Origin: Patescibacteria group bacterium
GTDB taxonomy: Bacteria; Patescibacteriota; Patescibacteriia; JACRDY01
DNA: 64,000 bases
Direction: 5' to 3'
Assembly (NCBI GenBank): GCA_041650515.1
Contig: JBAZLA010000001.1
Span: 18,710 to 82,709, forward strand
The stretch's first letter is position 1; each line of letters starts with the position of its first letter. The notes beneath the pieces are model-generated. The model was not told the DNA's origin, made no database searches, and saw nothing but the letters and a program-made list of their open reading frames with translations. The position numbers were made by a program, and so were the translations under genes. This document shows, in pieces, positions 3,702 through 59,020 of this stretch.

Positions 3702-4448
3702 TTATTTTGCTTTCGTACGGACAAGTCGAGACTTGCCCCTACTTTCGACTTTCTTACTCGATTGTTTCTTTACTTTCACCATCGCTGGTTTAGCTGCTGG
3801 CTTGGCCTCTAATTTCAAACCTTGGCCGTATATTTTTTCAATCTCCTGCAAGGCCGCTTTAGAAATCAATAAAAACTTATATTTTAACAAATCAACAACA
3901 TTCAAACTATTTGCGCCCAAAGCATAAACTTTTTCTAGATTGTGAACCACCTGAACCAGCTTGGGATCAGTCGAAGCTAGCGCCAAACAAGTTTTTTGAT
4001 TTTTGACCGGTAATTTATTCAAAATTTGGTTTAGTAATTTAGTCTTCATCTCGGCTAGTTCCCACTTATCAACGACCACTAAATTATCGCTCTTGGCTTT
4101 ATCAGATAAAATCATTCGCAAAGCCTTATTCTTCATTTTTTGATTAATCTTAACCTTAAAATTACGTTCTTTGGTCGGACCAAAAGTAATACCGCCGCCC
4201 TTCCAGATTGGTGATCGACTAGAGCCATGACGCGCTCGGCCAGTGCCTTTCTGCTTCCAAGGTTTTTTACCGCCACCGCGAACGTCGCTCCGACCCTTAG
4301 TATGGGCCAAAACTTTTCGGGCGTTTTTTTCTTGAGCGATAACCACTTGGTGAATTACGGCGATATTTGGCTCAATATCAAATAAAACTGGATTTAATTC
4401 AATCTCTTCAACTTTATCACCGGCTAGATTGTAGACTGCTGTTTTCAT
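3702..4448 (-). CDS. rplD: 50S ribosomal protein L4 with a C-terminal Lys-rich tail
   Basis: Translation carries HTKGRSDVRGGGKKPWKQKGTGRAR, an L4 signature. Confidence 0.9.
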   Translation of the reverse strand: MKTAVYNLAGDKVEEIELNPVLFDIEPNIAVIHQVVIAQEKNARKVLAHTKGRSDVRGGGKKPWKQKGTGRARHGSSRSPIWKGGGITFGPTKERNFKVKINQKMKNKALRMILSDKAKSDNLVVVDKWELAEMKTKLLNQILNKLPVKNQKTCLALASTDPKLVQVVHNLEKVYALGANSLNVVDLLKYKFLLISKAALQEIEKIYGQGLKLEAKPAAKPAMVKVKKQSSKKVESRGKSRLVRTKAK

Positions 4449-5098: not shown

Positions 5099-5640
5099 AA
5101 GGCAAAGAAAAAAGCTAGTAACCTCTATCAATAATTAATTACCAATAAGGGTTACTAGCCTTAGCTTTTAAGGATATTTTTGGCTAAATTTAGCTAAATA
5201 TTTTCCTTTCTTGCCTCTAAAGACTAGCGTAGATTATCGCCTCGTAAGACTAACGTCACGGGGGAATTTGCTCCACTAATCCTCACTGGTAGCCACAGTA
5301 TAAAGCAAGATTAAAATGCTGTCAAGGAATAGTCCACAGTCCACAGTCCAAAACGGCTTTAATAAAGAAAAAACCGCCCCAAAGCGGATTTGTTATTGGC
5401 TCTGCCGACAGCCATCAGCTAACAGCCATCAGCTTATCAAAAACTCCACCATCGGCAGGCTGAAGATGATCTGGCTAAAAGCTAAGTGGGTGTCCGCAGT
5501 ACAGGCGCCACGGCGCTAGACAATGTGAGACTCCCATTACCAGATGATGACCCAGAACATAATCAACCCAAATGTCCGATAGTGAAGCTCGTCTTTATTA
5601 TACTCCTGCTGGTAAAAGGACGTCAACTTTGTTTAGTACA

Positions 5641-6222
5641 CAGTGCACAGTACCTAGTACACAGTTTAGCTAGATTTAATTATTTTTTTAGAACGATCTC
5701 ATCGTCGGGATATTAAGATACGATTGCTAATTAATAAACTAAAAACTATGACCACAAAAAGCTATCGTGACCTAATCGTTTGGCAAAAAAGTCTAAATTT
5801 GGTTTTAGCCACCTATGAATTGACTAAATGTTTCCCCAAAGAAGAACTTTTCGGGCTAACCACCCAAATCCGTCGGGCGGCTATTTCTATTCCTTCAAAC
5901 ATTGCCGAAGGCTACGGCCGCCGGTCTAACGGTGATTTTCGACGATTTCTCTTAATTGCCAAAGGATCCGCCCTAGAATTAGAGACTCAACTGCTAATAG
6001 CCAAGGAGTTAAAACTAACAGAAGACAACAAATTCACCAAAGCTGAATCATTACTAATTGAGGTGGCAAAATTACTTTACTGTTTTGTAAAAAAAATAAA
6101 ATAGGGATAAATACACAGTAACTAACTTCCCGAGTCAATTACAACCCCAGAGTTCCCTAGATAGACTTGGGAAGTTTAGTTTTTTCTAAAGTACTAGGTA
6201 CTGGGTACTAGGTACTAGTCAA
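5641..6222. mobile_element. Inverted-repeat cassette carrying four-helix-bundle gene 1; arms are GTACTAG/GTGCACA-type heptamer arrays
   Basis: Left arm cagtgcacagtacctagtacacag is the reverse complement of the right-arm type gtactaggtactgggtactaggtactag. Confidence 0.6.
5748..6104 (+). CDS. Four-helix-bundle protein of the 23S rRNA intervening-sequence family (TIGR02436-like, Avd-like fold)
   Basis: Translation MTTKSYRDLIVWQKS...IPSNIAEGYGRRS...ALELETQLLIAKEL is a hallmark of the family. ATG at 5748; the ORF finder begins at a TTG at 5724. Confidence 0.8.
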   Translation: MTTKSYRDLIVWQKSLNLVLATYELTKCFPKEELFGLTTQIRRAAISIPSNIAEGYGRRSNGDFRRFLLIAKGSALELETQLLIAKELKLTEDNKFTKAESLLIEVAKLLYCFVKKIK

Positions 6223-6758: not shown

Positions 6759-6762
6759 GTGA

Positions 6763-6869
6763 TAGTACATAGTACGTAGTACTTAGTACTTAGTACATGG
6801 AGTTTGAGACCAACCATTGTTGGGATATGACTCACTATGTACTGTGTACTAAGCACTACGTACTATTTA
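6763..6869. repeat. Long imperfect hairpin whose arms are tandem TAGTAC(N) heptamers (about 35-nt arms, about 33-nt loop), abutting the 5' side of tRNA-Thr
   Basis: Arm 1 is atagtacatagtacgtagtacttagtacttagtacat; the reverse complement of arm 2 is aaatagtacgtagtgcttagtacacagtacatagt. Confidence 0.8.
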
Positions 6870-7794: not shown

Positions 7795-8060
7795 CCCATA
7801 ATTAATACGGTCGGGGGCTGGGGCGGATGCGGCGCGGAGCCGAAGTCTCCGTCTGGTCGATACTGTCCAGGAGACAAGGCGGGTAGACCGGACTGAGGAT
7901 GAACAATGAATCGCGCCTCAAGAGCCCCAGGACTTTTTTGCTACTTTTTTAGTCATAAAAAAGTAGATCATTACGGAGACGAGACAGGGATTCCTCCGCT
8001 TCACCCCGCCTGCGGCGGGGTCCGGTCGGAATGACAATTAAACAACCGATAACCCGCCGG
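7795..8060. repeat. GC-rich structured intergenic repeat, copy A of five
   Basis: Shares gggggctggggcg, aacaatgaatcgcgcct, a ctacttttttagtcataaaaaagtag hairpin, and a ggtcggaatgacaatt end with the copies at 10320, 38515, 42100 and 58888. Confidence 0.7.
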
Positions 8061-8103: not shown

Positions 8104-9414
8104 ATGCGACCAAAACACCTCCGTCTCATTTTAATCATGATCCTAATCATCGTCGCTAGTCTGCGCTACCTTTTTTGGTATCCCAAAATTACTCCCGATC
8201 AACTAGCTTACTATAACGATCAAGGTTCGACCACTTTTATCGGCTTGATAACCAGCGAACCTGAAAAAAATCTCAAAAACACCAAGCTAGTTGTCTCGGG
8301 GCAGGATTTAAAAGGTAAAGTTTTGATCACCACTTATCTCTGGCCAGAATATCATTATGGCGACCAATTAGAAATTAATTGCCGGCTTCAAGCGCCCCAA
8401 CCAATCGAGGATTTTGCTTATGACAAATATCTAGCTAAATCGCAAATTTATTCTCTTTGCTACCAGCCCCAAATCAAACTCCTAGCCCAAAATCAGGGCA
8501 ATCGGTTTTATAGTCAAATTTTAAAAGTGAAAAACCGCCTGGGCCAAACTATTGACCAGAGTTTGCCTAGTCCACAGTCAGCCCTGCTAAAAGCCCTACT
8601 CCTGGGCGACCGTGGCGATCTACCCCCAGAACTTACAGCGGCTTTTAGTCGAGTTAGTTTAACTCATATCATTGCCGTCTCTGGTTCGCACTTGGTAATA
8701 ATTATTGCCGTGTTAATGAATCTACTCTTGGGTCTAGGCCTACGCCGTAAAGTCGCCTTTTATTTTATTGTCTCAATTCTGATTACTTATACTTTGCTAG
8801 TCGGCGCGCCAGCTTCGGCGGTCCGCGCCACGATTATGGGTATTATGACGCTCTTGGCCCAACAAATCGGCCGGCTCAATCGTTCCAGCTGGTCGCTAAT
8901 CCTGACTGCTCTAGTGATGTTAGCCATCAACCCACTGCTGCTATTCTACGACGTTGGCTTCCAACTTTCTTTTCTCTCAGTCTGGGGCCTAATGAGTATC
9001 TCGCCTTTATTAGAAAAGTGGCTAATCAAAGTATCAATCCCCAACTGGTTAGGGTTAAAAGACTCTTTAATTATGACGCTGGCGGCCCAAATCGCCACTT
9101 TGCCATTAATTATTTACCAGTTTGGCCAAGCTTCCCTGGTCGCGCCACTAGCTAACCTATTAATTTTGCCAGCCGTGGAGCTAATTATGATCTTGGGGTT
9201 TGCCGCCACTTTTATCGGTCTAATTAATCTAACACTGGGACAAATCTTATTCTATTTAGAGTGGCCGCTACTACAATATTTTATTAAAACAACAGCCTGG
9301 CTAGCCAGCTGGCACTATTCAGCGCTAACCGGGATAAAAATCGGCTGGTGGTTTTTGATAGCTAGTTATAGAATCATCCTAATTATAAAACACGTAACCC
9401 AACATAAGACATAG
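8104..9414 (+). CDS. comEC: ComEC/Rec2 competence protein, N-terminal membrane channel part (DUF4131 plus Competence domain)
   Basis: Polytopic membrane protein; pairs with the downstream MBL-domain ORF. Confidence 0.8.
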   Translation: MRPKHLRLILIMILIIVASLRYLFWYPKITPDQLAYYNDQGSTTFIGLITSEPEKNLKNTKLVVSGQDLKGKVLITTYLWPEYHYGDQLEINCRLQAPQPIEDFAYDKYLAKSQIYSLCYQPQIKLLAQNQGNRFYSQILKVKNRLGQTIDQSLPSPQSALLKALLLGDRGDLPPELTAAFSRVSLTHIIAVSGSHLVIIIAVLMNLLLGLGLRRKVAFYFIVSILITYTLLVGAPASAVRATIMGIMTLLAQQIGRLNRSSWSLILTALVMLAINPLLLFYDVGFQLSFLSVWGLMSISPLLEKWLIKVSIPNWLGLKDSLIMTLAAQIATLPLIIYQFGQASLVAPLANLLILPAVELIMILGFAATFIGLINLTLGQILFYLEWPLLQYFIKTTAWLASWHYSALTGIKIGWWFLIASYRIILIIKHVTQHKT

Positions 9415-9449: not shown

Positions 9450-10319
9450 GTGTTTTACAAAAACATGAACACCAAAAAAATTATTGCTTATCTATCTATT
9501 CTTCTCGCTCTGCTTGTCACTCTAACAGGCGGATTCTACTATTACCAAGCTAGCCAAATTCTTCGCGTCACCTTCTGTGATGTTGGCCAGGGCGACGCTA
9601 TTTTGATCCAAACGCCCCAACGACAGAATATTCTAATCGACGGCGGACCAGACAACTCGGTCCTCAATTGTTTAGGTAAAAACTTACCATTCTACGATCG
9701 CCAGCTAAGCTTGGTCATTCTTACTCACCCCCACGCCGATCACACCACTGGTTTAATCGAGGTTCTAAATCGCTACCAAGTTAAGCAAGTTTTACTAACT
9801 AAGACGAAATATTCTGATCCTATTTACAACCAACTGTTAAGTTTAATCCAACAAAAAAATATTCCGACCGTTGATCCCGCAAATCAGCCCAATTTTAATC
9901 TCAGCCAAAATATCAACCTGGCGACTCTTTATCCTTTAACCTCTTTAGTAGACCAAACCGTTGATAATATTAATAATACTTCCATCGTTAATAAGCTTAC
10001 TTATCAAAACATTTCCTTTCTATTTATGGGCGATCTAGAGGTGGCGGCCGAAAATGTCTTAATTCTTAATCAACCCAATCTAAAATCTGACGTTCTAAAA
10101 GTCGGCCACCACGGTAGCACCTCTTCCTCGGCGCCAGAATTTTTAAATTTAGTTAAACCCAGAATCGCTATTATCTCGGTCGGGGTAAAAAATACTTACA
10201 GCCTACCCAGTCTACGAACAATTAGGCGGCTAGAGAAACTTGGCAGTCAAGTTATCCAAACCAGCCTAAGTGGTGAGATAACAATCCAAAGTGACGGCCA
10301 AAAATTTTGGCTAAAATAA
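9450..10319 (+). CDS. ComEC C-terminal metallo-beta-lactamase domain protein (split comEC)
   Basis: Carries LTHPHADHTTGL and VGHHGS motifs, with an N-terminal TM anchor. Confidence 0.85.
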   Translation: MFYKNMNTKKIIAYLSILLALLVTLTGGFYYYQASQILRVTFCDVGQGDAILIQTPQRQNILIDGGPDNSVLNCLGKNLPFYDRQLSLVILTHPHADHTTGLIEVLNRYQVKQVLLTKTKYSDPIYNQLLSLIQQKNIPTVDPANQPNFNLSQNINLATLYPLTSLVDQTVDNINNTSIVNKLTYQNISFLFMGDLEVAAENVLILNQPNLKSDVLKVGHHGSTSSSAPEFLNLVKPRIAIISVGVKNTYSLPSLRTIRRLEKLGSQVIQTSLSGEITIQSDGQKFWLK

Positions 10320-10655
10320 AAGCAACCCGAGGAAGACGGCTTTGTCTTATTAGTTATATCGGCCGAATATCATCTTAATCCGTGAGGGTTTGGGGCTGGC
10401 ATGGAGCAAAGTCGAACTTCGACCTCTTCTGATTACACCGAAGAGCGAGGCGGGTTAGTCCGTAGACAGCTAAACAATGAATCGCGCCTTATGAACCCCA
10501 AAGGTTTTTTGGTCCGCCTAGACTTGCTAGGCGAGGCTGGTTACTTTTTTGACTCCAAAAAAGTGACATTTACCTTAATAAATATAGTTACAAAGGATGA
10601 TAATAATTAAAACAATATAAATAAACAAATCGCCCTACAAATACAAAACATTTTA
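10320..10655. repeat. GC-rich structured repeat, copy B, flanked by a 27-bp direct duplication (10307-10333 and 10656-10682) of the comEC 3' end
   Basis: ttggctaaaataaaagcaRcccgagga appears on both sides (26 of 27 identical). The interior shares the aacaatgaatcgcgcct and ttacttttttgactccaaaaaagtgac modules with copy A. Confidence 0.75.
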
Positions 10656-10715
10656 TTGGCTAAAATAAAAGCAGCCCGAGGATACCGGACTGCTTAAATT
10701 TTTCTAATAACTCAA

Positions 10716-11927
10716 TTACTTGGAAGCGCCGCTATAAGCGATTGATCGAACAATTGACCAATCATTAGTGCTACCAGACACCGGGGAGTGACCATAAAGC
10801 TGGCGGAAAATATTAATTGCGTTTTTCTCAGCCACCAACTCGTCGCGATCTGGGCTACGTAGCGCATAGGCCATATAGTGGATCGCCATATCATCAGCCA
10901 TTACCGAGAAAACGGGCAAACGGCGATAAATCTTTACAAATTGAGCAATCGCCCAACGTTCGCGATCTAAATTCCGCTGAACAGTCTTGTGGGCATTACA
11001 CATTCTAGCTACATCTTCCCAATCTAAATCGGTGTTAGGCATGCGACCAAAAACATTCTGAAAATCTAATATCACACCACCACGTTCACGCTCACCTAGG
11101 CTCTTAGCTTGGTCAGTAGTGCCATAAGCAATAAAGTGAACTACTTCCCAACCACCATTAGCACCACTTGGTAGGTGTTTGGTTAGACTAACATAGAGAT
11201 TTAAACCATTTAATTCAGCTTTCAAATCAGGAGTGGCCGGTCGCGCTGGCTGAGCATTACCATTACCAGTACCTTCTGGAGCGGCTGGCGTTGCTGGTGT
11301 TGCTGGAGCAGCCGGAACGGTTGTATCACCAGCGTTAGGTGGGGTTGATGGTAAAGTCGGTGCAGAATAGCTACCACCGCCACCGCCACCGCCGCTACCA
11401 CCACTACTAGTATAAACAGTAGAGCTAGGGACGTTAGAAATAGCACTGTAGTTATCATTATCATCAACTGTATAAATAGCAAAATAGTAGGTGTTACCAG
11501 AACTCAAACTAGTGACCGTTGCTGTATGCGTACCTTGAACAGCAACTGTCTCGCCCAAAGTACCTTCATCTTTATTGGCATCACCGCTACTGGTGGCATA
11601 ATAAAGTTCGTAATTTTCAAAATTATCTAGGTCTGTGCCATCAGCCGCCTCCGTCACTGCTGACCAGTTACAAGAAATTGTGGTACTGGTCGCGCCGTTA
11701 CAAGACAGATTGGTGACTGCCGCTGGAACATCTGAACTAGTTTCAAAACCATAACCATAGGTGTCACTAATCCAGCCGTAGCCGTAGCCAGATTGCTTTT
11801 CCGCGTAGGCATAATTGTAATAACCCGTAGCGGAAACAATAACTACAATCAAAGCCACTAGAAAAAATCTAGTTAAATTCTTTTCTTGTTTAAACCATTT
11901 TTGGGAAGCGCAAATGAGTTCTTTCAT
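10716..11927 (-). CDS. Membrane-anchored surface protein: fibronectin-III-like domain, Gly/Pro/Thr-rich linker and a conserved C-terminal domain of unknown function
   Basis: N-terminal TM, an SGGSGGGGGGGS run and PATPATPAAP repeats. Confidence 0.55.
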   Translation of the reverse strand: MKELICASQKWFKQEKNLTRFFLVALIVVIVSATGYYNYAYAEKQSGYGYGWISDTYGYGFETSSDVPAAVTNLSCNGATSTTISCNWSAVTEAADGTDLDNFENYELYYATSSGDANKDEGTLGETVAVQGTHTATVTSLSSGNTYYFAIYTVDDNDNYSAISNVPSSTVYTSSGGSGGGGGGGSYSAPTLPSTPPNAGDTTVPAAPATPATPAAPEGTGNGNAQPARPATPDLKAELNGLNLYVSLTKHLPSGANGGWEVVHFIAYGTTDQAKSLGERERGGVILDFQNVFGRMPNTDLDWEDVARMCNAHKTVQRNLDRERWAIAQFVKIYRRLPVFSVMADDMAIHYMAYALRSPDRDELVAEKNAINIFRQLYGHSPVSGSTNDWSIVRSIAYSGASK

Positions 11928-27388: not shown

Positions 27389-27483
27389 GTAGTATGCAGT
27401 ATGCGGTATACAGTATGCAAGGGTTGAGTGCCACAGTTAGTGAAAAATAAGCCCTGCATACTGCATACTGACCCCTGCATACT
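27389..27483. repeat. Hairpin element with AGTATGC heptamer arms, between ahcY and pfkB
   Basis: gtatgcagtatgcggtatacagtatgcaagggtt ... aagccctgcatactgcatactgacccctgcatac. Confidence 0.8.
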
Positions 27484-28430: not shown

Positions 28431-28480
28431 GATGTCCGCTGTTCGCTAATGGCTCGCGAAATGCGAACCGCGAACCGCGG
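28431..28480. repeat. Short hairpin with GCGAACCGCGGACAGC-type arms (CGAACCG heptamer family)
   Basis: tgtccgctgttcgc...gcgaaccgcgaaccgcggacagc. Confidence 0.7.
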
Positions 28481-28484
28481 ACAG

Positions 28485-29186
28485 CTATTTAATTAACCCC
28501 TGCTTTCTCAAATATATTTCCGCCCGTTTTAAGTCATCCGGATAGCCGATGGGCAACCAATAATCAGTTTGGACGATTTTAACTGGATAACCATTAACCA
28601 TTTTAACGACTGTTTGTGGCAAGCCAAATTCTTTACCATCCTTAATCGGCGCTAAACTGTATTTAAAAACATTCTCATCCAAAACATAAAGGGCAGAATT
28701 AACTAGGCACTTAGTCCCAGGCATAAGTTCGGTTTCAACAATATCAATCAAATTACCAGCCTCATTAATCATCAAGGCGCCATAATTACGCAATTCTTCC
28801 GCCACAACTTCTTTAGCTAAGATACAGCGCTCTTGCGCTAAACATCGAACGACATCTTTGGCTTGATAAATATCATCCCCCATCAAAACTAAAAAGCGGC
28901 CCTTCAGTAATCCCCGACAACGCCATAGAGCATCGCCGGTACCTAATAATTCTGGCTGAATAACATAACTAATCTGGCGACCATCATATTCATTACCAAA
29001 ATATTTTTTGAGCTGCTCACCCAAATAACCCACCACCAAAATTACTTCATCAATTTCTTTAGGTAATTGCTCAATACTGTAGGCTAACAATGGCTTGCCT
29101 TGCACCGGCAGCATTGGTTTGGGTACTTCGTAAGTTAGGGGCCGCATTCGTACACCGGCACCAGCGGCTAGAATCACTGCTTGCAT
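28485..29186 (-). CDS. Sugar-phosphate nucleotidyltransferase (NTP_transferase family)
   Basis: MQAVILAAGAGVRMRPLT...KPML motif. Confidence 0.85.
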   Translation of the reverse strand: MQAVILAAGAGVRMRPLTYEVPKPMLPVQGKPLLAYSIEQLPKEIDEVILVVGYLGEQLKKYFGNEYDGRQISYVIQPELLGTGDALWRCRGLLKGRFLVLMGDDIYQAKDVVRCLAQERCILAKEVVAEELRNYGALMINEAGNLIDIVETELMPGTKCLVNSALYVLDENVFKYSLAPIKDGKEFGLPQTVVKMVNGYPVKIVQTDYWLPIGYPDDLKRAEIYLRKQGLIK

Positions 29187-32100
29187 TATTTTACTACTAT
29201 ATTAATCAACCGCCCGGGAACAAAAATCACTTTAACTATTTCTTTACCAGTTAAATAACTTTTTACTTTTGTATCCACTAAGACTAACTCTTTAGCCTCG
29301 GTTTCGCTAATATCCGCTTTGACTTGAATATTGGTTCGCATTTTGCCGTTAATCTGGATCACCAAAGTGATTTCTTCTTCCTTAACTAACTCCGGATCAT
29401 ACTTGGGCCAGCTCTGGCAAAAAATACTTTTTTGGTGACCAAGCGTTTGCCACAACTCTTCGGCTAAGTGGGGCGAAAACGGTGCCAAAATTTTTAAAAA
29501 CAATTCCAAATTTTCCTGACTGACTTCTTTGGCTTCTTGAAAACCATTGACCAAAATCATCATGGCCGAAATCGCGGTATTATAGCGCATGTTTTCAATA
29601 TCCTCAGTAACTTTTTTGATTGTTTGATGAACTAATTTGTCGCCTTGTACCTTGCTACTTGTTACTTTTTCTTGAAGCAACCAAACTTTATCCAAAAACC
29701 GCCGCACACCATTAATCCCTTTGGTACTCCAGGGCTTGGTGTCTTCAAGCGGCCCCATAAACATTTCATAGAGTCGCATGCTGTCCGCGCCAAAATCGCG
29801 AACCACATCATCGGGGTTAATCACATTACCACGCGATTTGGACATTTTTTGGCCGTCTTCGCCCAAGATCATGCCTTGGTTGCGAAGTTTGAGAAACGGT
29901 TCAGCAAAATTAATATAACCCAGATCATACAAAACTTTGGTAAAAAACCGCGCATACATCAAATGCAGTACCGCATGTTCCGCTCCGCCAACATAGAGAT
30001 CAACTGGTAGCCATTTATTAATTTCTTTCTGGCTAGCAAACTCTTTTTTGTTCTCTGGATCAGTGTAACGGAAATAATACCAAGATGAACAAACAAAAGT
30101 ATCCATAGTATCGGATTCGCGTTTGGCGGGAGCACCACAAACCGGACATTTAACATTGTGAAATTTTTTAGAATTGACCAACGGCGACTCACCAGTTGGT
30201 TTAAAATCAACATCATCTGGCAATAAAACTGGTAAATCTTTCTCTGGCACCGGGACTAAACCCGAATTAGAGCCTAAAGAAAATTCTTCTAAAATTTCTG
30301 GGAAAGACAACATTCCCACCCGGCGATTAGAATGACCACGGTTATTAAATATTCTCACCCGGGCGCCCAAAGGCTGATAATCTTTTTCGACCGCTAACGG
30401 AATATAAGGATCGTTGTCTGAAAGATAAATAACAATTTCTTTGGCTAGTTTTTTTACTCGGACTAAATCAATTTTAGCTTGATTAAAATGCTTGGCCGCC
30501 TCAATACTATTCACCTCGGCACCGGCCGTTCGCATATTGCTCCAATTCTCCTCACTCTGAGACGGACCGGTCGGCGCGACTAAAATTAATTTTTCTATTG
30601 GTAAACCAGTTACCTGAATATATTGGCAAACAGCCGGGGCGCTCAGGCTGTGAGCGACGATAAAAATTTTATCTTCTTTTTTAAAATTGAGACTCTGCAG
30701 CGCCGCCACCCACTCGGCAATTGTCGGCACGCTAGCATTAGGCAAAATTGGAATTAAAACTTCATAGCCGCTATTTTCTAGTTGCTCTTTGAGCCAAGGA
30801 AACCAATTATCGTTAGCGTGAGCATTAAGACCGTGGGTTAATAAAACCTTAGGTTTTTTCTGAGCACAATGATCACAATAAATCATCGGGATGGGCGCGC
30901 CCCAATAGCGCTGGCGCGATACCAGCCAATCGCGAAGTTTGTACTGCGTTTTTAACTGACCACCGACTTTTTGCGTAATTTTTTTCTTGGCTTCTTCACT
31001 GGTTAAACCATCAAACTCGCCGGAATTAATCATGGTGCCAGTGCCAACCCAACACTTATAAGCTAAATCGCTACTTAAATGGCCATAAGCGCCCGGGCTG
31101 GCCATGCCAGATTCTATCGGACTGGCTGCCATTAAACTTTCTGGTTTAATCACTTCAATTATCGGCAAACTAAATTTTTTGGCGAACTCATAGTCTCGTT
31201 CATCGTGCGCCGGCACCGCCATGATTGCTCCAGTGCCATAGCCAGTCAAGACATAATCAGCCACAAAAATCGGTATTTCTTTATTGGTTGCCGGATTGAT
31301 GGCTCTAATACCCTTTAATTCCACACCGGTCTTGGCTTTAGCTAAATCGGTTCTTTCGATTTCATTCTTCTTTTGGGCCAACTTAATGTATTGCTCAACT
31401 TCTTCCCAATTTTTAATTGCCAATTTTAAATTATTAATCAAACCATGCTCTGGCGCCAGCACCATATAAGTTACGCCAAAAAGTGTATCCGGCCGCGTGG
31501 TAAAAACTTTAATTTTTACTGGTTCGCGAACCGCGGACAGCGAACCGCGGACAGCGAATTCTAACTCTGCTCCCTCACTCCGGCCGATCCAATTTTTTTG
31601 CATCAGCTTAATCGGCTCGGGCCAATCAATTGTATCCAAATCATTGAGCAGTCTATCAGCATACTGAGTCACTTTAAAAAACCACTGCTCTAGGTCTTTT
31701 TGCACCACTTCGTTGTGACAACGTTCGCATTGACCGGCGACCACCTGCTCATTAGCTAGTACTGTCTGACAAGAATTACACCAATTAACTTTGGCTTTCT
31801 TTTTGTAAGCTAAACCGTTTTTATAGAGCAACAAAAAAAACCACTGCGTCCATTTGTAATATGCTGGATCAGAAGTTTTAATTTCGCGTGACCAGTCATA
31901 ACTCAGGCCCAGCGACTGGATCTGGCGTCGAAAAGTTTCAACACTTTTGTCAGTCGTTATCTGTGGATGAACTTTTTGCTTGATGGCAAAATTTTCCGCT
32001 GGTAGGCCAAAAGCATCCCAACCCATCGGGTGTAAGACATCATAACCATTGAGTCGCAGATAACGGGAATAAATATCCGTCGCGGTGTAACCCTCAGGAT

Positions 32101-32251
32101 GACCAACGTGTAAACCAGCGGCTGACGGATAAGGAAACATATCCAAAATATATTTTTTCTTTTGGGGACTCTTGGGCGCTTGGTTAATTTTCTCCTTAGC
32201 CCAATATTTCTGCCACTTGGCTTCTATCTCTTGATGAATATACTTATCCAT
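29186..32251 (-). CDS. leuS: Leucyl-tRNA synthetase carrying an inserted alpha/beta-hydrolase domain (YdeN/RBBP9 family, about 210 aa) in the zinc-knuckle region
   Basis: HVGH (HIGH) motif, TTRPDT editing motif, KMSKS motif. The insert VLLTHGLNAHANDNWFPWL...IVAHSLSAPA...LVAPTGP lies between CDHC and VPVPEKDLPVLLP. Confidence 0.95.
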   Translation of the reverse strand: MDKYIHQEIEAKWQKYWAKEKINQAPKSPQKKKYILDMFPYPSAAGLHVGHPEGYTATDIYSRYLRLNGYDVLHPMGWDAFGLPAENFAIKQKVHPQITTDKSVETFRRQIQSLGLSYDWSREIKTSDPAYYKWTQWFFLLLYKNGLAYKKKAKVNWCNSCQTVLANEQVVAGQCERCHNEVVQKDLEQWFFKVTQYADRLLNDLDTIDWPEPIKLMQKNWIGRSEGAELEFAVRGSLSAVREPVKIKVFTTRPDTLFGVTYMVLAPEHGLINNLKLAIKNWEEVEQYIKLAQKKNEIERTDLAKAKTGVELKGIRAINPATNKEIPIFVADYVLTGYGTGAIMAVPAHDERDYEFAKKFSLPIIEVIKPESLMAASPIESGMASPGAYGHLSSDLAYKCWVGTGTMINSGEFDGLTSEEAKKKITQKVGGQLKTQYKLRDWLVSRQRYWGAPIPMIYCDHCAQKKPKVLLTHGLNAHANDNWFPWLKEQLENSGYEVLIPILPNASVPTIAEWVAALQSLNFKKEDKIFIVAHSLSAPAVCQYIQVTGLPIEKLILVAPTGPSQSEENWSNMRTAGAEVNSIEAAKHFNQAKIDLVRVKKLAKEIVIYLSDNDPYIPLAVEKDYQPLGARVRIFNNRGHSNRRVGMLSFPEILEEFSLGSNSGLVPVPEKDLPVLLPDDVDFKPTGESPLVNSKKFHNVKCPVCGAPAKRESDTMDTFVCSSWYYFRYTDPENKKEFASQKEINKWLPVDLYVGGAEHAVLHLMYARFFTKVLYDLGYINFAEPFLKLRNQGMILGEDGQKMSKSRGNVINPDDVVRDFGADSMRLYEMFMGPLEDTKPWSTKGINGVRRFLDKVWLLQEKVTSSKVQGDKLVHQTIKKVTEDIENMRYNTAISAMMILVNGFQEAKEVSQENLELFLKILAPFSPHLAEELWQTLGHQKSIFCQSWPKYDPELVKEEEITLVIQINGKMRTNIQVKADISETEAKELVLVDTKVKSYLTGKEIVKVIFVPGRLINIVVK

Positions 32252-34308: not shown

Positions 34309-35634
34309 CTAATAGCCTCTAATTTTCATTGCTACCGCCACCCGCTTGATGCCCAAAATAAAAGCAGCGGTGCGCAGATCAATTTTCTTTTCTTTGGCGA
34401 TTGATTCAACACTAATAAAAGCTTTATCCATGACTACTTTTAGCCGTTTAGCCACTTCTTCTTCACTCCAATTTTCCCGATGCAGGTTTTGCAACCACTC
34501 AAAATAAGAAACCGTCACCCCGCCCGCATTAACCAAAACATCGGGGACAACAATTATCCCCCGCTTGTTTAATTTAACATCCGCTTCGGGCGTGGTTGGG
34601 CCATTGGCAATTTCCAAAATTACTTTAGCTTTGATCTTGCCGGCGTTTTGGGCCGTAATCTGATTTTCCAACGCCGCCGGGATCAAAATATCACACGGCA
34701 TTTCTAAAAGCTTGGCGCTAGCCATATGTTTATGTTCCACTTCATCACAAACCGAACCAGTGCAGTAATAACCATCAACCAAGCCTTTTTGTTTTTTAAT
34801 CTTCATTGTGCTTTCTGGGTGGAAAGAATCACCATTGGGTGAGTAGATACCGCCTTTAGAATCAGCTAAGCCAACTACACGGTAGCCAGCTCGATTAACC
34901 AGCTGAGCAATATGATAACCGGCATTACCAAAACCTTGGATAATCACTCGCAAACCACCTTTTGACTTTCGTACGGGCAAGTCGCGACTTGCCCCTGCTT
35001 TCATTTTCTTAACCACGTTTTCTAAAACATAGAACGCACCCTGAGCTGTCGCCGTATCGCGACCAAGCGACCCGCCGATTTCTACCGGTTTGCCGGTCAC
35101 AACGGCTGGTACTGGATAACCTTTAATTTTGGAGAACTCATCCATGATCCAAGCCATAATCTGCGGATTAGTATAAACATCGGGCGCCGGCACATCTTTA
35201 AGCGGGCCAATATATTCCTGAATCGCCTGAACATAGCCTCGAGTCATCCGTTCCAGCTCGCCAACGGACATTTTTTTGGGATCAACTTTGATCCCGCCTT
35301 TACCGCCGCCAAAGGGGATATCCACCACGGCGCATTTGACCATCATCCAAAAAGCCAAGGCCTTAACCTCATTAATATCCGATTGCGGATAATAACGGAT
35401 GCCACCCTTAAACGGACCACGAGCATCATTATACTGCACCCGATAGCCTTCAAAATTCTTGATCTGGCCATTATCCATCTTAACTGGCACAGTAAAATGT
35501 AACGCTCGCTTGGGTGAACGAAGTTTATCCAAAATCTCCGGATCAAGATCAAGATATTTGGCAGCCAAGTCTAGTTGTTTTAAAGCGTTGGTAAATGGGT
35601 TGGCAGTTCGCGGTTCGCGGTTCGCGGTTCGCAT
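34309..35634 (-). CDS. gdhA: Glutamate dehydrogenase
   Basis: Lys-Gly active-site region KGGIRY...GGGKGG. The first 12 codons, starting at the ATG at 35632-35634, lie within the (GCGAACC)n repeat and encode RTANREPRTANP. Confidence 0.9.
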   Translation of the reverse strand: MRTANREPRTANPFTNALKQLDLAAKYLDLDPEILDKLRSPKRALHFTVPVKMDNGQIKNFEGYRVQYNDARGPFKGGIRYYPQSDINEVKALAFWMMVKCAVVDIPFGGGKGGIKVDPKKMSVGELERMTRGYVQAIQEYIGPLKDVPAPDVYTNPQIMAWIMDEFSKIKGYPVPAVVTGKPVEIGGSLGRDTATAQGAFYVLENVVKKMKAGASRDLPVRKSKGGLRVIIQGFGNAGYHIAQLVNRAGYRVVGLADSKGGIYSPNGDSFHPESTMKIKKQKGLVDGYYCTGSVCDEVEHKHMASAKLLEMPCDILIPAALENQITAQNAGKIKAKVILEIANGPTTPEADVKLNKRGIIVVPDVLVNAGGVTVSYFEWLQNLHRENWSEEEVAKRLKVVMDKAFISVESIAKEKKIDLRTAAFILGIKRVAVAMKIRGY

Positions 35635-36120
35635 ATACAAAGTTTAGAAAATTTTAATATTGAATATTTTATACTAGTTTTATTAACTAATTAGCAAATA
35701 CAACTTTATGATGATTAAATCATACAAAGACCTACTCGTCTGGCAGGTAGGAATTGAGCTAGTAATAGCTACCTATGAGCTAACAGAGCAATTCCCGAAA
35801 AAAGAACAATTTGGACTAACCTCGCAGATTAGAAGAGCCTCAATCTCTATCCCATCTAATGTCGCCGAGGGTTATCAACGTAAAACTGATGGGGAACTTT
35901 TACGTTTCTTATTGATTGCTCTCGGTTCGGCCTCTGAACTAGAAACTCAACTTTTTTTAGCCAAAAAATTGAAAATGACATCCGAGGAATACTTTCTAAG
36001 AATAGATAATTTGTTAACACGAGTACTCCAGCTTACCAACTCTTTTATCAATAAACTACGCAAGGATACCGGGCGAACAGCGAACCGCGGCCAGCGAACC
36101 GCGGCCAGCGAACCGCAACA
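35595..36120. mobile_element. Inverted-repeat cassette carrying four-helix-bundle gene 2; left arm (GCGGTTC)x3-4, right arm (CAGCGAACCGCGGC)x3
   Basis: The flanks are reverse-complementary heptamer arrays. The cargo gene is antisense to both neighbours. Confidence 0.65.
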
Positions 36121-36133
36121 AACTAACCGCTGA
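35708..36133 (+). CDS. Four-helix-bundle protein of the 23S rRNA IVS family, copy 2
   Basis: MMIKSYKDLLVWQVG...IPSNVAEGYQRKT...ASELETQLFLAKKL is paralogous to the 5748..6104 product. The C-terminal 20 aa are encoded by the flanking repeat. Confidence 0.8.
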   Translation: MMIKSYKDLLVWQVGIELVIATYELTEQFPKKEQFGLTSQIRRASISIPSNVAEGYQRKTDGELLRFLLIALGSASELETQLFLAKKLKMTSEEYFLRIDNLLTRVLQLTNSFINKLRKDTGRTANRGQRTAASEPQQTNR

Positions 36134-37338: not shown

Positions 37339-37432
37339 AAGTATGCGGCATACAGTATTTAGCATGCAGACGTCGGATACCACCGTTCCTAAAAAATGAT
37401 CCCTACATACTGCATACCGCATACTGTATACT
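37339..37432. repeat. Hairpin element with AGTATGC heptamer arms, between the aminotransferase and trxB
   Basis: agtatgcggcatacagtat...tacatactgcataccgcatactgtatac. Confidence 0.8.
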
Positions 37433-38514: not shown

Positions 38515-38745
38515 CATTTGGGGTCTGGGGCGCCCGCCTACCCGCTTCGACTCGAATCGGGGCGAGGACTCGACATCTAGTCGAGGCTGGGATGCGGAGC
38601 GGAGGAATGACAACCACACAAAACCTGCTCTAAGTCATTCATTACACTCAGAATAAACTCCGTCGAAGGGGTCGGGATGACAATAAAAATAAAGTCGGTG
38701 AAATTTACCCTGGATGAGTACAGCGAAGCAAAACTGGTCGTAACA
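38515..38745. repeat. GC-rich structured repeat, copy C
   Basis: gggtctggggcgcccgcctacccgc...ggcgaggactcg...ggaggaatgacaacc...ggggtcgggatgacaat. Confidence 0.65.
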
Positions 38746-41246: not shown

Positions 41247-41945
41247 ATGAGAACGAATATGTTTATACTTATCAATAAACCCGCCGGTTGGACATCGCAT
41301 GACGTGATTGGCCGGCTGCGCCGGATTACTGGCGAAAAACGCATTGGCCACGCCGGCACGCTTGACCCCTTTGCCACCGGTCTTTTGATTGTGGCCATTA
41401 GTCGCGAATCAACCAAACAAATCGATCAATTTGTAAAACTAAACAAAGAATATCTAGCCACAATTAAACTCGGCGCGACTACTGATACTTATGATAAAAC
41501 TGGAAAGATACAGAAAAGCAAAGAAGCAATAAAACAAGAAAACAAAAATATTAAAAAGGCTTTAGAATCGTTCATTGGCCCCCAGTTGCAGATCCCGCCA
41601 ATGTTTAGCGCCAAAAAAGTAAACGGCAAAAAACTCTACGAATTGGCCCGACGAGGCAAGGAAATTGAGAGAAAACCGAGCCAGATTAATATTACTGATT
41701 TAGAAATTATTGACTATCACTGGCCGGATTTGAAAATTAAAGTTAACTGCTCCTCTGGCACCTATATCCGCAGCTTGGCCCATGATCTGGGAATTAAGCT
41801 GGGTTGCGGCGGGTATTTAGAAGAATTAACTCGAACTAAAATTGGTAATTTTGATTTAAAAAATGCAATTACTCTAGATAAATTAACACCGGAAAACTGG
41901 CAAACGCTAGTTCATAGTACAGAGTACACAGTACCCAGTATCTAA
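41247..41945 (+). CDS. truB: tRNA pseudouridine(55) synthase
   Basis: HAGTLDP catalytic Asp motif. The last roughly 10 codons overlap an AGTACAN heptamer array. Confidence 0.9.
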
Positions 41946-42026
41946 ATTCCCTCTTTTTTATTATAATACCCCATTCCTTAAGAAAACTGGGGGTATTAGT
42001 ATCTATGTATTATGTACTCTGTATGG
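41913..42026. repeat. Heptamer-arm hairpin (AGTACAG/AGTACAC units) spanning the truB 3' end
   Basis: catagtacagagtacacagtacccagtatc ... gtattagtatctatgtattatgtactctgtatgg. Confidence 0.6.
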
Positions 42027-42030
42027 AGTT

Positions 42031-42062
42031 TACCCTGAGCAAAGCGAAGGGTACTATTTTTA
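42031..42062 (+). terminator. Rho-independent terminator of truB
   Basis: taccct-gagcaaagcga-agggta followed by ctattttt. Confidence 0.6.
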
Positions 42063-42099
42063 TAAATGAAGAAGGACCTTTCGCGTGGTTAGCTAGGGT

Positions 42100-42235
42100 C
42101 CTTCGTTAATGGCATTTTGGCCGTGAACGCTGGCCCGCCTAGACTCGCGTCTGGCGAGGCTGGGAAGCGTTTCTGGCACTGGACTAAGCTCAGCAAGCGG
42201 GGGCTGAACTCAGACCGAGTAGGTGCCGCTGTGAT
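42100..42235. repeat. GC-rich structured repeat, copy D
   Basis: ggcccgcctagactcgcgtctggcgaggctgg is shared with copies B and C. Confidence 0.6.
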
Positions 42236-43089
42236 CAGGGCACCGACGGCGGAACAATGGAAAAGCCGATGGTCCAGTACGTTCTCTGATAGTACTGTTT
42301 GTCGGGTTCCTGTTCCGTGGTTGGCATGTCCTCGTTGAAACCGCGGAGACGGCGATAGGCCTCGCGGTTGTCCGGATCGGTGTAATGGGCGACGTCAACG
42401 AGTGCGCCGCCCCACAACCGTAGCCTCCAGCCCGTGCTGGGATAAGCCAGGTTGAACCCGATGGTCGGACCGACGAGAAATTTCCACCCCTCGTCGTCCG
42501 GAAGAAACTTGCAGGCGGTCTCCTCGTCGATCACGTCGTGATCGACGCGTTCGAGGATGGCGCGCTCGCTGGCCGTTTGGTAGTGGTACCATCTGGCCAT
42601 GACGCCGAGGAAGGCAATGCGGTGGATCTCGTACCCCGAGCGGGCTTCGAGCAGGATCCGCTCCAAGGGCTCGTTGCCGTAATCGGGCATGTAGTGCCCG
42701 TCCACGGCGAATTCAAACCCATGAGTGGTCACGAAGACTCCCGGATGGAGATCAAACGTGACTGCCATGGCGCCAGCGCCGCCCACCCCGCCGAAGAGGT
42801 GGACATTGAGGATTCCGCTGAACCCGCGATAGACCATTCCCAGGCCACCTTGGGTCAACGGATATGCCCCATCCAGGTCGAAGTACATCGGATCATCCCA
42901 GTTATGAGAGATGACGACCCGACCTTCGAGGGCCAACGCGACGTTGTGCGGCCCATCCTTGGACAGGTAATACATCGCGTCAATGTCCGCGATGATCGGG
43001 CCGGCCTTCTCGCTCTCGGCGTGGGCGATGGTGGCGGTGAACAGGATGGACAACAGGACGATACAGACGATACAAATGATGCGTTTCAT
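42235..43089 (-). CDS. Secreted beta-rich protein, possibly outer-membrane-barrel-like, with a signal peptide; GC-rich, strong SD (AAGGAG)
   Basis: MKRIICIVCIVLLSILFTATIAHA signal peptide. The mature part is Gly/Tyr/Trp/Asp-rich with alternating hydrophobicity. Estimated at about 60% GC against about 40% in the flanks, by eye. Confidence 0.5.
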   Translation of the reverse strand: MKRIICIVCIVLLSILFTATIAHAESEKAGPIIADIDAMYYLSKDGPHNVALALEGRVVISHNWDDPMYFDLDGAYPLTQGGLGMVYRGFSGILNVHLFGGVGGAGAMAVTFDLHPGVFVTTHGFEFAVDGHYMPDYGNEPLERILLEARSGYEIHRIAFLGVMARWYHYQTASERAILERVDHDVIDEETACKFLPDDEGWKFLVGPTIGFNLAYPSTGWRLRLWGGALVDVAHYTDPDNREAYRRLRGFNEDMPTTEQEPDKQYYQRTYWTIGFSIVPPSVP

Positions 43090-43099
43090 GGGTTGCTCC

Positions 43100-43363
43100 T
43101 TATCGCTTTTCGGTGATAGTGTCGTCAGATTCGATCTTTCTTACCCGGACTATGACTAACCGGGTAATAGCCATAACGGCCAGGCTGATGCCCAACCAGA
43201 TTGCCGCGTCGGCCCGCTGCCCGCTGATAAAAATCAGTCGCAGCAGGTGCTGGAACGCGCACGGGAACATCAGAACGAATATGACCCAACAAATTTGGGC
43301 AGTGATTCTCAAAAACATGACTTGCCTCCGTTGATTCGTGTGATTCGTGTTATCTTTGAACAA
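43100..43363 (-). CDS. Small (87-aa) two-TM membrane protein, co-oriented with the secreted-protein gene; GGAGG SD
   Basis: ORF with an SD 6 nt upstream, in a GC-rich context. Confidence 0.4.
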   Translation of the reverse strand: MFKDNTNHTNQRRQVMFLRITAQICWVIFVLMFPCAFQHLLRLIFISGQRADAAIWLGISLAVMAITRLVIVRVRKIESDDTITEKR

Positions 43364-43573
43364 ACCTGACGGTTTGTCCGTTTTTTCCGCTATATGTAAG
43401 CAGATTCAAAATCTGCCTATTGGAAGGTACAATCACCCTCGCTTTAGCCTGAAATGGCTAATTTGAGTGTGACAATATATAATAGCATAGTTTGAGATAA
43501 AAGTCAATGAAAACCACCAAAAAACAGCTTAATTTAGCTATTTTTTGGGTTTTGACAGCCTAAAATAGCAACG

Positions 43574-43687
43574 GTGCGGGCCCAATCCCGGACACCCCCT
43601 CCTAACCTCCCCCTTTGCAGGGGGAGGGCCGGTCTCCTCCCCTGCTAAGGGGAGGAACAAGGTGGGGTGTCCGGGATTGGGCCTGCA
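43574..43687. repeat. Palindromic multi-hairpin GC element (25-nt outer inverted repeat enclosing cctcccccTTTGCAgggggagg and ctcctccccTGCTAAggggaggaa hairpins)
   Basis: Outer arms gtgcgggcccaatcccggacacccc / ggggtgtccgggattgggcctgcac. Related to the element at 56758-56878. Confidence 0.75.
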
Positions 43688-43702
43688 CCGACGTTAGCAT
43701 TT

Positions 43703-43726
43703 CAAAAAACGGTCCTTTCGGGCCGT
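43703..43726 (-). terminator. Rho-independent terminator of purH; A-run/hairpin/T-run, possibly bidirectional
   Basis: aaaaaacggtcctttcgggccgt. Confidence 0.55.
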
Positions 43727-43757
43727 CTACTGTGTACTGGGTACTCGGTACTATGGA
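43727..43757. repeat. Tandem heptamer array (GTACTGN)x4 between the purH stop and its terminator
   Basis: ctactgtgtactgggtactcggtactatggac. Confidence 0.7.
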
Positions 43758-43762
43758 CTAAA

Positions 43763-48823: not shown

Positions 48824-48883
48824 ATTTAATAAAATTTTTAAATCTATTTAATATCCAATATTCCACACTATTAATAGGGTTGT

Positions 48884-48952
48884 GGGCCTACGCCTGGCGG
48901 CGATATTTAGGGTTGACTCCTGAATACGGGGGTTCGATTCCCCCTGGGTCCA
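48884..48952 (+). other. tRNA-like fragment: intact T-arm (GGGGG-TTCGATT-CCCCC) and acceptor strand with a GGGCCTA 5' partner, but no canonical D-arm or anticodon arm (69 nt); probably a tRNA 3'-half remnant or integration scar
   Basis: gggcctacg...acgggggttcgattccccctgggtcca. No cloverleaf could be completed. Confidence 0.4.
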
Positions 48953-48960
48953 CGCCCCGA

Positions 48961-48990
48961 TTGACAAAGTGATAAAACTAACGATATAAT
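48961..48990 (+). promoter_or_regulatory. Near-perfect sigma70 promoter TTGACA-18-TATAAT with no plus-strand gene downstream
   Basis: ttgacaaagtgataaaactaacgatataat. Confidence 0.5.
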
Positions 48991-48997
48991 AATGATG

Positions 48998-49050
48998 GAG
49001 TCAACCTTGAATACCGCTCAAATCCCCGGCAACGGGGATTTGTTTTGTTT
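48998..49050 (+). ncRNA. Candidate roughly 50-nt small RNA bounded by the consensus promoter and a strong terminator
   Basis: Transcribed region gagtcaaccttgaataccgctc, then terminator aatccccggcaacggggatt plus tgttttgtttt (49021-49050). Its 5' part is reverse-complementary to gttgactcc in the upstream tRNA-like fragment. Confidence 0.3.
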
Positions 49051-50377: not shown

Positions 50378-50474
50378 TAGTATGCAGGGATAAGTATGTA
50401 GTATGCAGGGGTTAATCCCCACGAATGGCGGGGCCTAAACCCTGCATACTACATACTATATACTAGATACTGAC
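50378..50474. repeat. Hairpin element with AGTATGC heptamer arms, between purD and purF
   Basis: agtatgcagggataagtatgtagtatgcaggggtt ... aaccctgcatactacatactatatactagatact. Confidence 0.8.
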
Positions 50475-55409: not shown

Positions 55410-55421
55410 AATTCGTAATTC

Positions 55422-58887: not shown

Positions 58888-59020
58888 TTTGTTGTTTTGT
58901 CATCCCGAGCGAAGTCGAGGGATCTAATCTAAAGTACCAGCCAAAGTTTAATATCATTTTAGATTCCTCCACTCCCTCGATGGTCATCGGGGTCGGTCGG
59001 AATGACATTTTAATAAACGG
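58888..59020. repeat. GC-rich structured repeat, copy E, with long imperfect inverted arms
   Basis: gtcatcccgagcgaagtcgagggatctaatctaaa ... tttagattcctccactccctcgatggtcatcggggtcggtcggaatgac. The 3' module matches copy A. Confidence 0.7.

Follow-up and report, generated by a model that had tools for sequence, protein, structure and literature searches.

The closest described counterparts of the element analysed here are short intergenic repeats and small-RNA genes of several kinds. NIMEs of Neisseria consist of RS units bounded by dRS3 (ATTCCC-N8-GGGAAT), BIMEs are found in enterobacteria, and the Correia element and ERIC exemplify MITEs. The dRS3 link is described by Di Nocera et al. (2013, PMC3733652), who also give the marks of the CGTC-tagged REPs: a CGTC or TGTC tag, a stem whose first two pairs are A-T, a unit of 20-40 bp, a stem of 8-9 bp and a loop of 4-5 nt. 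The concept of the REPIN comes from PMC3116915. According to PMC12288879, the ssr9 copies that go with ISPpu9 inserted in REPs are multicopy small-RNA genes travelling with mobile DNA. A literature search returned no description of such repeats in Patescibacteria. Here we analyse a stretch of DNA found directly after the competence gene comEC in a genome of this group, and conclude that its insertion and the accompanying duplication are real, and that this stretch represents, in decayed form, a new family of structured cassettes with a narrow distribution.

The window, i.e. the whole stretch of 64,000 nucleotides that was analysed, comes from a Patescibacteria MAG, in which it lies on a contig of 472,517 bp (ENA ERZ27247363 k141_1064255); the GC content is ~42%, and the host lineage belongs to the candidate phyla radiation. 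The competence gene is divided into two open reading frames (ORFs), one with the Competence domain (8104-9414) and one with the metallo-beta-lactamase (MBL) domain (9465-10319), and the same split is seen in relatives. The nearest MBL homologue outside the organism itself is only 56% identical, which indicates that the lineage is thinly sampled. Downstream, a gene with an fn3 domain (10716-11927, minus strand) is convergent with comEC-MBL. Exact-protein matches of comEC, MBL and the fn3 gene belong to the same strain only, and its contigs break inside repeats. No transposase, integrase or reverse transcriptase was found among the Pfam-scanned genes (41 of the roughly 60 larger ORFs of the window) or among the precomputed Pfam labels of the genes in the loci L001 and L131. 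The presence of Avd-like four-helix-bundle genes led us to consider a DGR, which was rejected, as no reverse transcriptase was found and NCBIfam assigns these genes to TIGR02436 and not to Avd.

According to the original prediction, an element has been inserted at the 3' end of comEC with a 27-bp target duplication, the repeat includes the comEC stop codon, and the genuine terminator lies only after the second repeat; all of this is borne out. The direct repeat, TTGGCTAAAATAAAAGCA[A/G]CCCGAGGA, is found on the plus strand at 10307-10333 (DR1) and 10656-10682 (DR2), with 26 of 27 positions identical and a spacing of 349 bp, and its edges are sharp, the similarity ending abruptly on both sides. 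DR1 comprises the last codons of comEC-MBL together with its TAA stop (the ORF ends at 10319) and has no partner arm downstream. DR2 supplies the T/A tract, the 5' arm and the loop of an intrinsic, bidirectional terminator (10669-10695) common to the convergent comEC-MBL (plus strand) and fn3-domain (minus strand) genes, and a consensus scan also reports 10669-10695 as the terminator of the convergent fn3-domain gene. For the hairpin, folding energies of -13.2 kcal/mol (plus strand) and -19.6 kcal/mol (minus strand, z -5.5) are predicted, compared with -4.5 kcal/mol (z +0.4) for the unfolded sequence 3' of DR1, and the complementary arm is present after DR2 only. Since the repeat is completed into a terminator only at DR2, about 322 bp have entered that terminator, a single bidirectional unit directly after the comEC-MBL stop codon that is now split by the inserted segment 10334-10655. 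The duplicated 27 bp carry this stop codon as well as the 5' arm of the hairpin and its T/A tract, so that both the end of comEC-MBL and the terminator of the fn3 gene have been kept. The stop codon requires DR1 and the terminator requires DR2, which explains why both copies have been retained. Functional need does not explain why the 14 non-coding bases of DR1 still match DR2 almost perfectly, and this preservation argues for a recent event.

The insert, hereafter copy B, comprises in order ~15 nt of unassigned sequence, an AT-rich block, three modules termed M1, M2 and HP, and an AT-rich filler. The AT-rich, promoter-like 5' flank block (10345-10383, plus strand) is homologous to the block upstream of another copy of the element, F (alignment score 25.5, versus 14.4 +/- 2.6 in shuffles), and collinear with short blocks upstream of copies C and A. 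M1-B (10384-10510, plus strand) is a partly degenerate version of a ~125-nt structured unit with a T-run at its end, and three of its 18 long-range pairs, located in P1/P2', are broken. It is followed by M2 (10511-10539, plus strand), a 29-nt palindrome GGTCCGCCTAGACTTGCTAGGCGAGGCTG that is nested in B and does not occupy that position in A or F, and by HP-B (10540-10567, plus strand), a conserved hairpin of the form GUUAC-U6-loop-A6-GUGAC. The remaining 87 nt (10569-10655), AT-rich and similar neither to the other copies nor to comEC/MBL, occupy the place of the GC-rich M3 module, so that the conserved 3' end of the family is absent from B. Unrelated filler (15 + 77 nt) separates the recognisable element from both repeats. 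The single-sequence fold of B is no better than that of shuffles (z -0.2), consistent with its degeneracy. A 69-aa ORF at 10401-10610 has neither a Pfam match nor a counterpart in the other copies, in agreement with the earlier view that these carry no ORF. Copy B belongs to a dispersed family of cassettes, of which it is a partly degenerate representative truncated at the 3' end, and it is probably non-functional or decaying.

The full cassette consists of an AT-rich 5' block, the ~125-nt M1, the HP hairpin and a GC-rich M3 ending with GGTCGG(A/G)ATGACA. In copy A, located between the ndk promoter and comEC, M1 (7812-7941, plus strand) is well preserved and followed, as in B but without M2, by the conserved A/U hairpin HP-A (7941-7966, plus strand), and then by M3-A (7975-8036, plus strand), a GC-rich hairpin block that ends with GGTCGGAATGACA and represents the conserved 3' end of the cassette. 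The homology of M3-A to M3 of copy F is reflected in a score of 43.5, versus 17.1 +/- 2.8 in shuffles, and the HP hairpin follows M1 in every copy. M1-A and M1-B differ strongly in the 5' half, with 46% of aligned columns identical. When the window is searched with a profile of the unit common to A and B, these two are the only matches. A scan of JGI metagenomes with the 17-mer AACAATGAATCGCGCCT, which is shared by A and B only, returned 46 loci, just one of which (L078) matches the whole A+B profile (E 1e-22). The RecR encoded in this locus is identical to RecR on the 472-kb contig, which places the copy found there, F, in the same genome: it lies ~270 kb away on this contig, in the interval that separates rplU from the recR terminator, and has the module order of A (M1, HP, M3). 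A profile of A, B and F revealed copy G (E 6e-12) between glyA and dnaB of a different organism, whose RecR is 68% identical, and a covariance model revealed copy H (30 bits, E 1e-6), much more divergent than G, in the recR-rplU slot of that same organism, i.e. in the same place as F.

Altogether, four members of the family (A, B, C and F) were found in this genome, of which 85 kb were examined, and two (G and H) in one relative, all of them units of 200-300 nt, multicopy and without a conserved ORF. M1 is absent from the comEC loci of relatives. A scan of GTDB representatives with the pattern GGCGGG-N(10-30)-CAATGAATCGCGCC gave 37 matches, all of them single chance hits and most apparently in unrelated GC-rich genomes, and the 33 matches among viral contigs were likewise all due to chance. 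A comparison with empty sites, suggested earlier, could be completed for F, whose slot is empty in other relatives (recR-rplU spacers of 46 and 139 bp, versus 378 bp here). For B no comparable site was found, because the synteny differs: in the nearest relatives MBL is followed by ndk or by a RAYT-like gene, and the MBL-fn3 junction has no equivalent. Copy F, and H in the relative, both near recR, may represent the resident gene, in which case A, B, C and G would be secondary.

The window had been proposed to contain five family members, A to E, with shared modules. Of these, A, B and a rearranged C do form one cassette family, while D consists of M2 only and E is a REPIN-like doublet. C (38520-38682, plus strand) starts with the 13-mer GGGGTCTGGGGCG, identical to that of F and G, includes positions 7-20 of M1 and retains GGGTCGGGATGACA as its 3' end; nested palindromes resembling M2 have taken the place of the interior. 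D (42132-42163, plus strand) is a second M2 palindrome without M1, forming part of a hairpin just 3' of a foreign gene (58% GC) for a 284-aa secreted protein, in a 1.8-kb island of 58% GC. E (58898-59007) has no M1 either: an AT-rich core is enclosed by two TGTC-tagged palindromes of the M3 type in inverted orientation, the whole forms a single long hairpin (-42.5 kcal/mol, z -4.3), and this genome contains another copy of E (L078, 573-718). Modules are shared between some of the five elements, but none is common to all of them: apart from the 17-mer of A and B, CCGCCTAGACT / GGCGAGGCTGG occur in B and D, and with one mismatch in C, and GGTCGGAATGACAWT occurs in A and E, and with one mismatch in C. 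Aligning the copies, which had been recommended as a check, confirms A-B as a true homologous unit; the other pairs have only words of 11-15 nt in common in an all-versus-all blastn of intergenic regions.

The M3 and M4 units are 35-55 nt long, with outer stems of 5 bp, internal loops and nested hairpins. They begin with a TGTC or CGTC head and a stem that starts with A-T, as in TGTC-AT-CCCGAGC...GGG-AT (left end of E), TGTC-AT-TCCGACC...GGA-AT (M3) and CGTC-AT-CCTGAGC...AGG-AT (locus L131, 5182), and eight CGGRATGACA cores were counted in 85 kb. A RAYT-like gene was found only in the nearest relative, where it adjoins comEC-MBL; it scores 26.4 bits with Pfam Y1_Tnp, above the cut-off, and 66.5 bits with NCBIfam, below the cut-off of 80 bits. 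The proposed five-member family therefore lumps together at least three kinds of repeats, which co-occur as a mosaic resembling NIMEs or BIMEs.

The idea of a GC-rich, structured, repeated element, and the consensus structure proposed as a check on it, are both substantiated by the five copies of M1 (A, B and F of this genome, G and H of the relative), which yield a covarying P1/P2'/P3 fold. In P1 the 5' and 3' ends of M1 pair over 8 bp (UCUGGGGC with GCCCCAGA), and a T-run follows. A symmetric 3x3 purine-rich loop separates P1 from P2', which has seven pairs around a conserved C-U mismatch (UGCGGCGC with GCGCCUCA), and the P3 hairpin has a different stem in each copy and an apex of 10 to 62 nt. 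The junction sequences GGGUA and AACAAUGAAUC are invariant in the three copies of this genome and have diverged in G and H. In a MAFFT alignment of four copies, 93% of the cells are paired and five of the 18 pairs exhibit double-sided changes, versus 1.5 +/- 1.0 in shuffles, only one in 500 of which reaches five. With all five copies, in an alignment that was fitted to the model and comprises few, related sequences, 94% of the cells are paired and eight of the 18 pairs (13 cells) are double-changed, a result reached by none of 500 shuffles. Sliding the partner strand by 1-3 columns lowers the pairing to 28-57%, and the minimum-free-energy fold of F alone recovers P1, the loop, P2' and P3. In HP the outer GUUAC...GUAAC is kept and the U6:A6 core is replaced in G by CCCGUA:UACGGG. 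The covariation, the slide test, the fold of F and the changes in HP together indicate that selection probably acts on the structure formed by M1 and HP, for which a small RNA is the simplest interpretation, as far as five related sequences can tell. We regard M1 as a candidate for an independently transcribed small RNA; promoter calls are weak.

The Rfam search that had been recommended revealed no known small-RNA family: with Rfam 15 at the gathering level only tRNA-Thr was reported, and at permissive thresholds there was nothing credible at E up to 10 for A-B or up to 5 for G. ARAGORN gave no match. The tmRNA, SRP RNA, 6S RNA, RNase P RNA and hammerhead were rejected as candidates in view of the variable apex, the missing core motifs and the silence of the Rfam models. 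A guide RNA was rejected as well, as the insert and the reconstructed empty site share complementarity of at most 7 nt and same-strand matches of at most 8 nt, which is the chance level. No recombinase gene is adjacent to the insert.

Taken as a whole, the observations on copy B are best explained if a dispersed small-RNA cassette, truncated at its 3' end, was inserted into the comEC-MBL terminator in an irregular duplicative event, an explanation that we favour with moderate confidence. The likeliest route would be a template switch during replication or repair, or a capture during gap repair, at the hairpin-forming terminator, in which part of an existing cassette would be copied along with filler and synthesis would be re-primed 27 bp upstream; it is the irregularity of B that suggests a template switch. 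As DR1 is near-perfect and M1-B already degenerate, B would have been copied from a donor that had diverged before and that we have not seen; in the DNA examined, neither a donor of B nor one of its filler was found.

The irregularity also bears on the strongest competitor of such a duplicative insertion, namely a non-autonomous transposon whose ends would be the 5' block/GGGGTCTGGGGCG and GGTCGGRATGACA, mobilised by a transposase encoded elsewhere through a long staggered cut that leaves a 27-bp target-site duplication. Long and variable target duplications are known for IS1634-type elements. The dispersal of the copies over unrelated loci whose orthologous sites are empty in relatives speaks for a transposon, and so do the conserved 5' and 3' termini and variable interiors of A, C and F, which would fit an element recognised by a transposase, the recurrence of the 3' motif of the cassette in the inverted ends of E, and the RAYT-like gene beside comEC-MBL in the nearest relative. 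Against it, the duplication is found at B only: around A and F there are no flanking repeats of note of 8 nt or more, just AT-rich chance matches of 7-14 nt. Moreover, the 3' terminus is missing from B, whose recognisable part is separated from both repeats by filler, no transposase was seen in the 85 kb examined (of a contig of 472 kb), and transposition by Y1/RAYT enzymes leaves no target duplication. Clean transposition is made unlikely by the flanking of B alone among A, B and F, by the missing end, by the filler at both repeats and by the lack of a transposase, integrase or reverse transcriptase among the scanned genes, and we consider the transposon an unlikely source of B.

The 27-bp repeats at the 3' end of a gene, with their sharp edges, are also typical of the att cores of integrases, and would fit a remnant flanked by att sites (CIME-like) or a Campbell-type integration, in which a small circle carrying the 27-mer would have recombined with the identical chromosomal 27 bp, either through a site-specific recombinase or through RecA at a minimal homology. 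We consider this improbable, as the insert and the window yielded neither an integrase nor a remnant of one, the 27-mer lacks an internal dyad and a dif-like architecture, no third copy of its core is found in the 85 kb of the genome that could be read, and the insert measures only 322 bp.

A more far-reaching reading, which we regard as a long shot, makes M1 itself the active part of a mobile cassette: it might belong to an undescribed class of structured RNAs restricted to a small lineage of Patescibacteria, e.g. a ribozyme or a protein-recruiting RNA, which would drive its own copying into terminator hairpins and leave long target duplications as its footprint. Very doubtful, too, is the interpretation of M1 as a cis-acting leader, a riboswitch or attenuator possibly encoding a leader peptide (MNRAS...), that controls the downstream gene, in the case of A comEC. 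The position of A between the ndk promoter and comEC and of G upstream of dnaB would be appropriate for a leader, as would the junction-type architecture with its invariant junction nucleotides and the T-run after P1; in A and F an AUG is preceded by GAGGA, and the differences between F and G in the first nine codons are all synonymous. However, only A and G have a downstream gene on the same strand, the genes next to B, F and H being convergent; the ORF stops after five codons in B and is missing from H, coding cannot account for the compensatory changes on the 5' strand, and no riboswitch of Rfam is matched. Finally, a tandem duplication of the A-comEC-MBL block with later deletion of the second comEC, which would have left B and the last 27 bp, accords with the direct orientation of A and B on both sides of comEC-MBL and with the family-like 5' block in the left flank of B, but it is hardly credible and already largely refuted, as the filler of B resembles neither comEC/MBL nor the region downstream of A, blastn matches B to F (72% over 131 nt) and reports no match to A, and the 46% identity of M1-A and M1-B implies an age at odds with that of the 96% identical 27-mer.

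We regard the insert as a genuine, rather ordinary example of intergenic repeat DNA, whose family is new but belongs to an established type of intergenic repeat or small-RNA element. Genomes of the candidate phyla radiation are small and usually treated as repeat-poor. The present one carries layered intergenic repeats, with a covarying, RNA-like unit of ~125 nt, TGTC-tagged palindromes, a nesting 29-nt palindrome and heptamer-repeat hairpins. Such repeats remodel gene ends, short-read assemblies break at them (the loci L002, L132 and L138 end inside copies of M1), and gene prediction turns them into small proteins, of which the 69-aa ORF of B is an example. A new Rfam-type motif could reasonably be proposed for M1. 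If transcribed, M1 would join a very short list of lineage-specific small RNAs suggested for Patescibacteria, with a limited biological yield as long as a function or mobility is not demonstrated.

Unlike a guide RNA such as the bridge RNA of IS110, the insert has no complementarity to its target beyond the chance level and no adjacent recombinase. With MITEs, the class named in the original prediction, the cassettes have in common that they are small, ORF-less, repeated, structured and gene-adjacent and may carry promoters or terminators; inverted ends and folding into one hairpin are seen in E. Nevertheless, the designation MITE-like cannot be upheld: A, B and F have no terminal inverted repeats, their 5' end (the AT-rich block/GGGGTCTGGGGCG) differing from their 3' end (GGTCGGRATGACA), which B even lacks, there is no fixed short target duplication among them, and no parental IS was seen in 85 kb. 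With the CGTC-tagged REPs and with REPINs, M3 and M4 share the TGTC or CGTC start and the A-T start of the stem, E is an inverted doublet within a longer hairpin, and a RAYT-like gene occurs in a close relative. Unlike the REPs, M3 and M4 are longer and more complex, with nested hairpins, and fall outside the size and stem length of that class; there are only eight core motifs in 85 kb, and M1, like B itself, is no REP. The comparison with ssr9 and ISPpu9 reveals no IS110-type recombinase nearby and no complementarity between RNA and insertion site here, but a common pattern of several paralogous, structured small-RNA copies per genome, beside palindromic repeats and terminators. Compared with NIMEs and BIMEs, M1 is distinct as a 125-nt unit with long-range covarying helices and an apparently low copy number. 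On the other hand, the stems of the type ATTCC...GGAAT and ATCCC...GGGAT found here recall dRS3, and, as in NIMEs and BIMEs, short GC-rich palindromic modules are combined in an order that varies from one intergenic site to another, nested within each other and located at gene ends and terminators.

The cassette can grow by accretion of palindromes. This follows from the relative that carries copy G (locus L128), where additional GC-rich hairpin modules continue for about 430 nt beyond this copy (L128 3626-4060); they include repeated CCCCGTAGAGGC...TTTTACGGGG units and terminate in GCCGAGTAAGACAAT, similar to the end of M3, the GC-rich block at the 3' end of the cassette.

Three copies of the cassette contain a short ORF at the conserved AACAAUGAAUC motif: copy A (window 7915-8034), copy F (8225-8335 of L078, a metagenome locus from the same genome) and copy G (L128 3586-3630). 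It starts with the AUG of the motif (GUG in copy G), preceded by GAGGA in copies A and F, and encodes MNRAS(G/R)AP... Copies F and G differ at five positions in the first nine codons, by four synonymous changes and the replacement of AUG by GUG, and these changes are also explained by compensatory base pairs. In copy B the ORF is terminated by a stop after 5 codons, and in copy H, from the same relative as G, it is absent.

Another structured, unannotated region is located at window 48878-49045 (+). It exhibits a perfect tRNA-like T-arm, GGGGGTTCGATTCCCCC, a long-range pairing of 10 bp between GGTTGACTCC and GGAGTCAACC, and a terminator. ARAGORN made no call in this region, and Rfam returned only sub-threshold matches, to the tmRNA T-arm, mascRNA and YrlA (16.6 bits).

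Short tandem arrays with a 7-nt period are also present at about 25 places in the window, with 3-6 copies each of diverse units (GTACTAG, AGTATGC, CGCGAAC/GCGGACA, ACTTTTG and ATTCGTA among many), mostly in intergenic regions or at gene ends. Examples are found at 5331-5350, 5635-5665, 6191-6218, 6762-6866, 27391-27470, 28455-28479, 31525-31558, 35598-35632, 36073-36113, 37406-37432, 41916-41940, 43728-43752, 50445-50471, 55404-55434, 55991-56022 and 59237-59266. Many form inverted pairs, resulting in long hairpins with arms composed of heptamers; to our knowledge, hairpins of this kind have not been described. Two of them carry a GC-rich insert in the loop, namely element E2 (the second copy of element E, in L078) and a 1.8-kb island at window 41946-43762 (58% GC vs 42% in the genome), enclosed by heptamer-repeat arms at 41915-41940 and 43735-43760. 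The island, which was probably acquired horizontally, comprises a single ORF of 284 aa with a signal-peptide-like N-terminus and no match in Pfam or NCBIfam, and a 52-nt inverted repeat (43572-43690).

A 42-nt intergenic repeat, TTTTGCTTTCGTACGGACAAGTCGAGACTTGCCCCTAC, is present in three copies in the same genome (window 3705-3746 and 34961-35002, L078 2129-2164), 83-88% identical to one another. The ORF of leucyl-tRNA synthetase (window 29186-32251 (-), 1021 aa) includes a repeat with a 14-nt period at 31525-31558 and a Ser_hydrolase domain at residues 470-655. Two genes encode 23S-rRNA-intervening-sequence/four-helix-bundle proteins (TIGR02436; window 5748-6104 and 35708-36133) that weakly resemble Avd, and no reverse transcriptase was found near either of them.

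No gene resembling a RAYT (REP-associated tyrosine transposase) follows comEC-MBL, the metallo-beta-lactamase part of the split competence gene, in the window. Such a gene, encoding 183 aa, is located directly 3' of comEC-MBL and followed by ndk in the nearest relative (L006 3470-4021), and is also found at loci L007-L009. The L006 gene scores 66.5 bits against the NCBIfam REP-associated tyrosine transposase model, below its 80-bit cut-off, and 26.4 bits against Pfam Y1_Tnp, above the cut-off.
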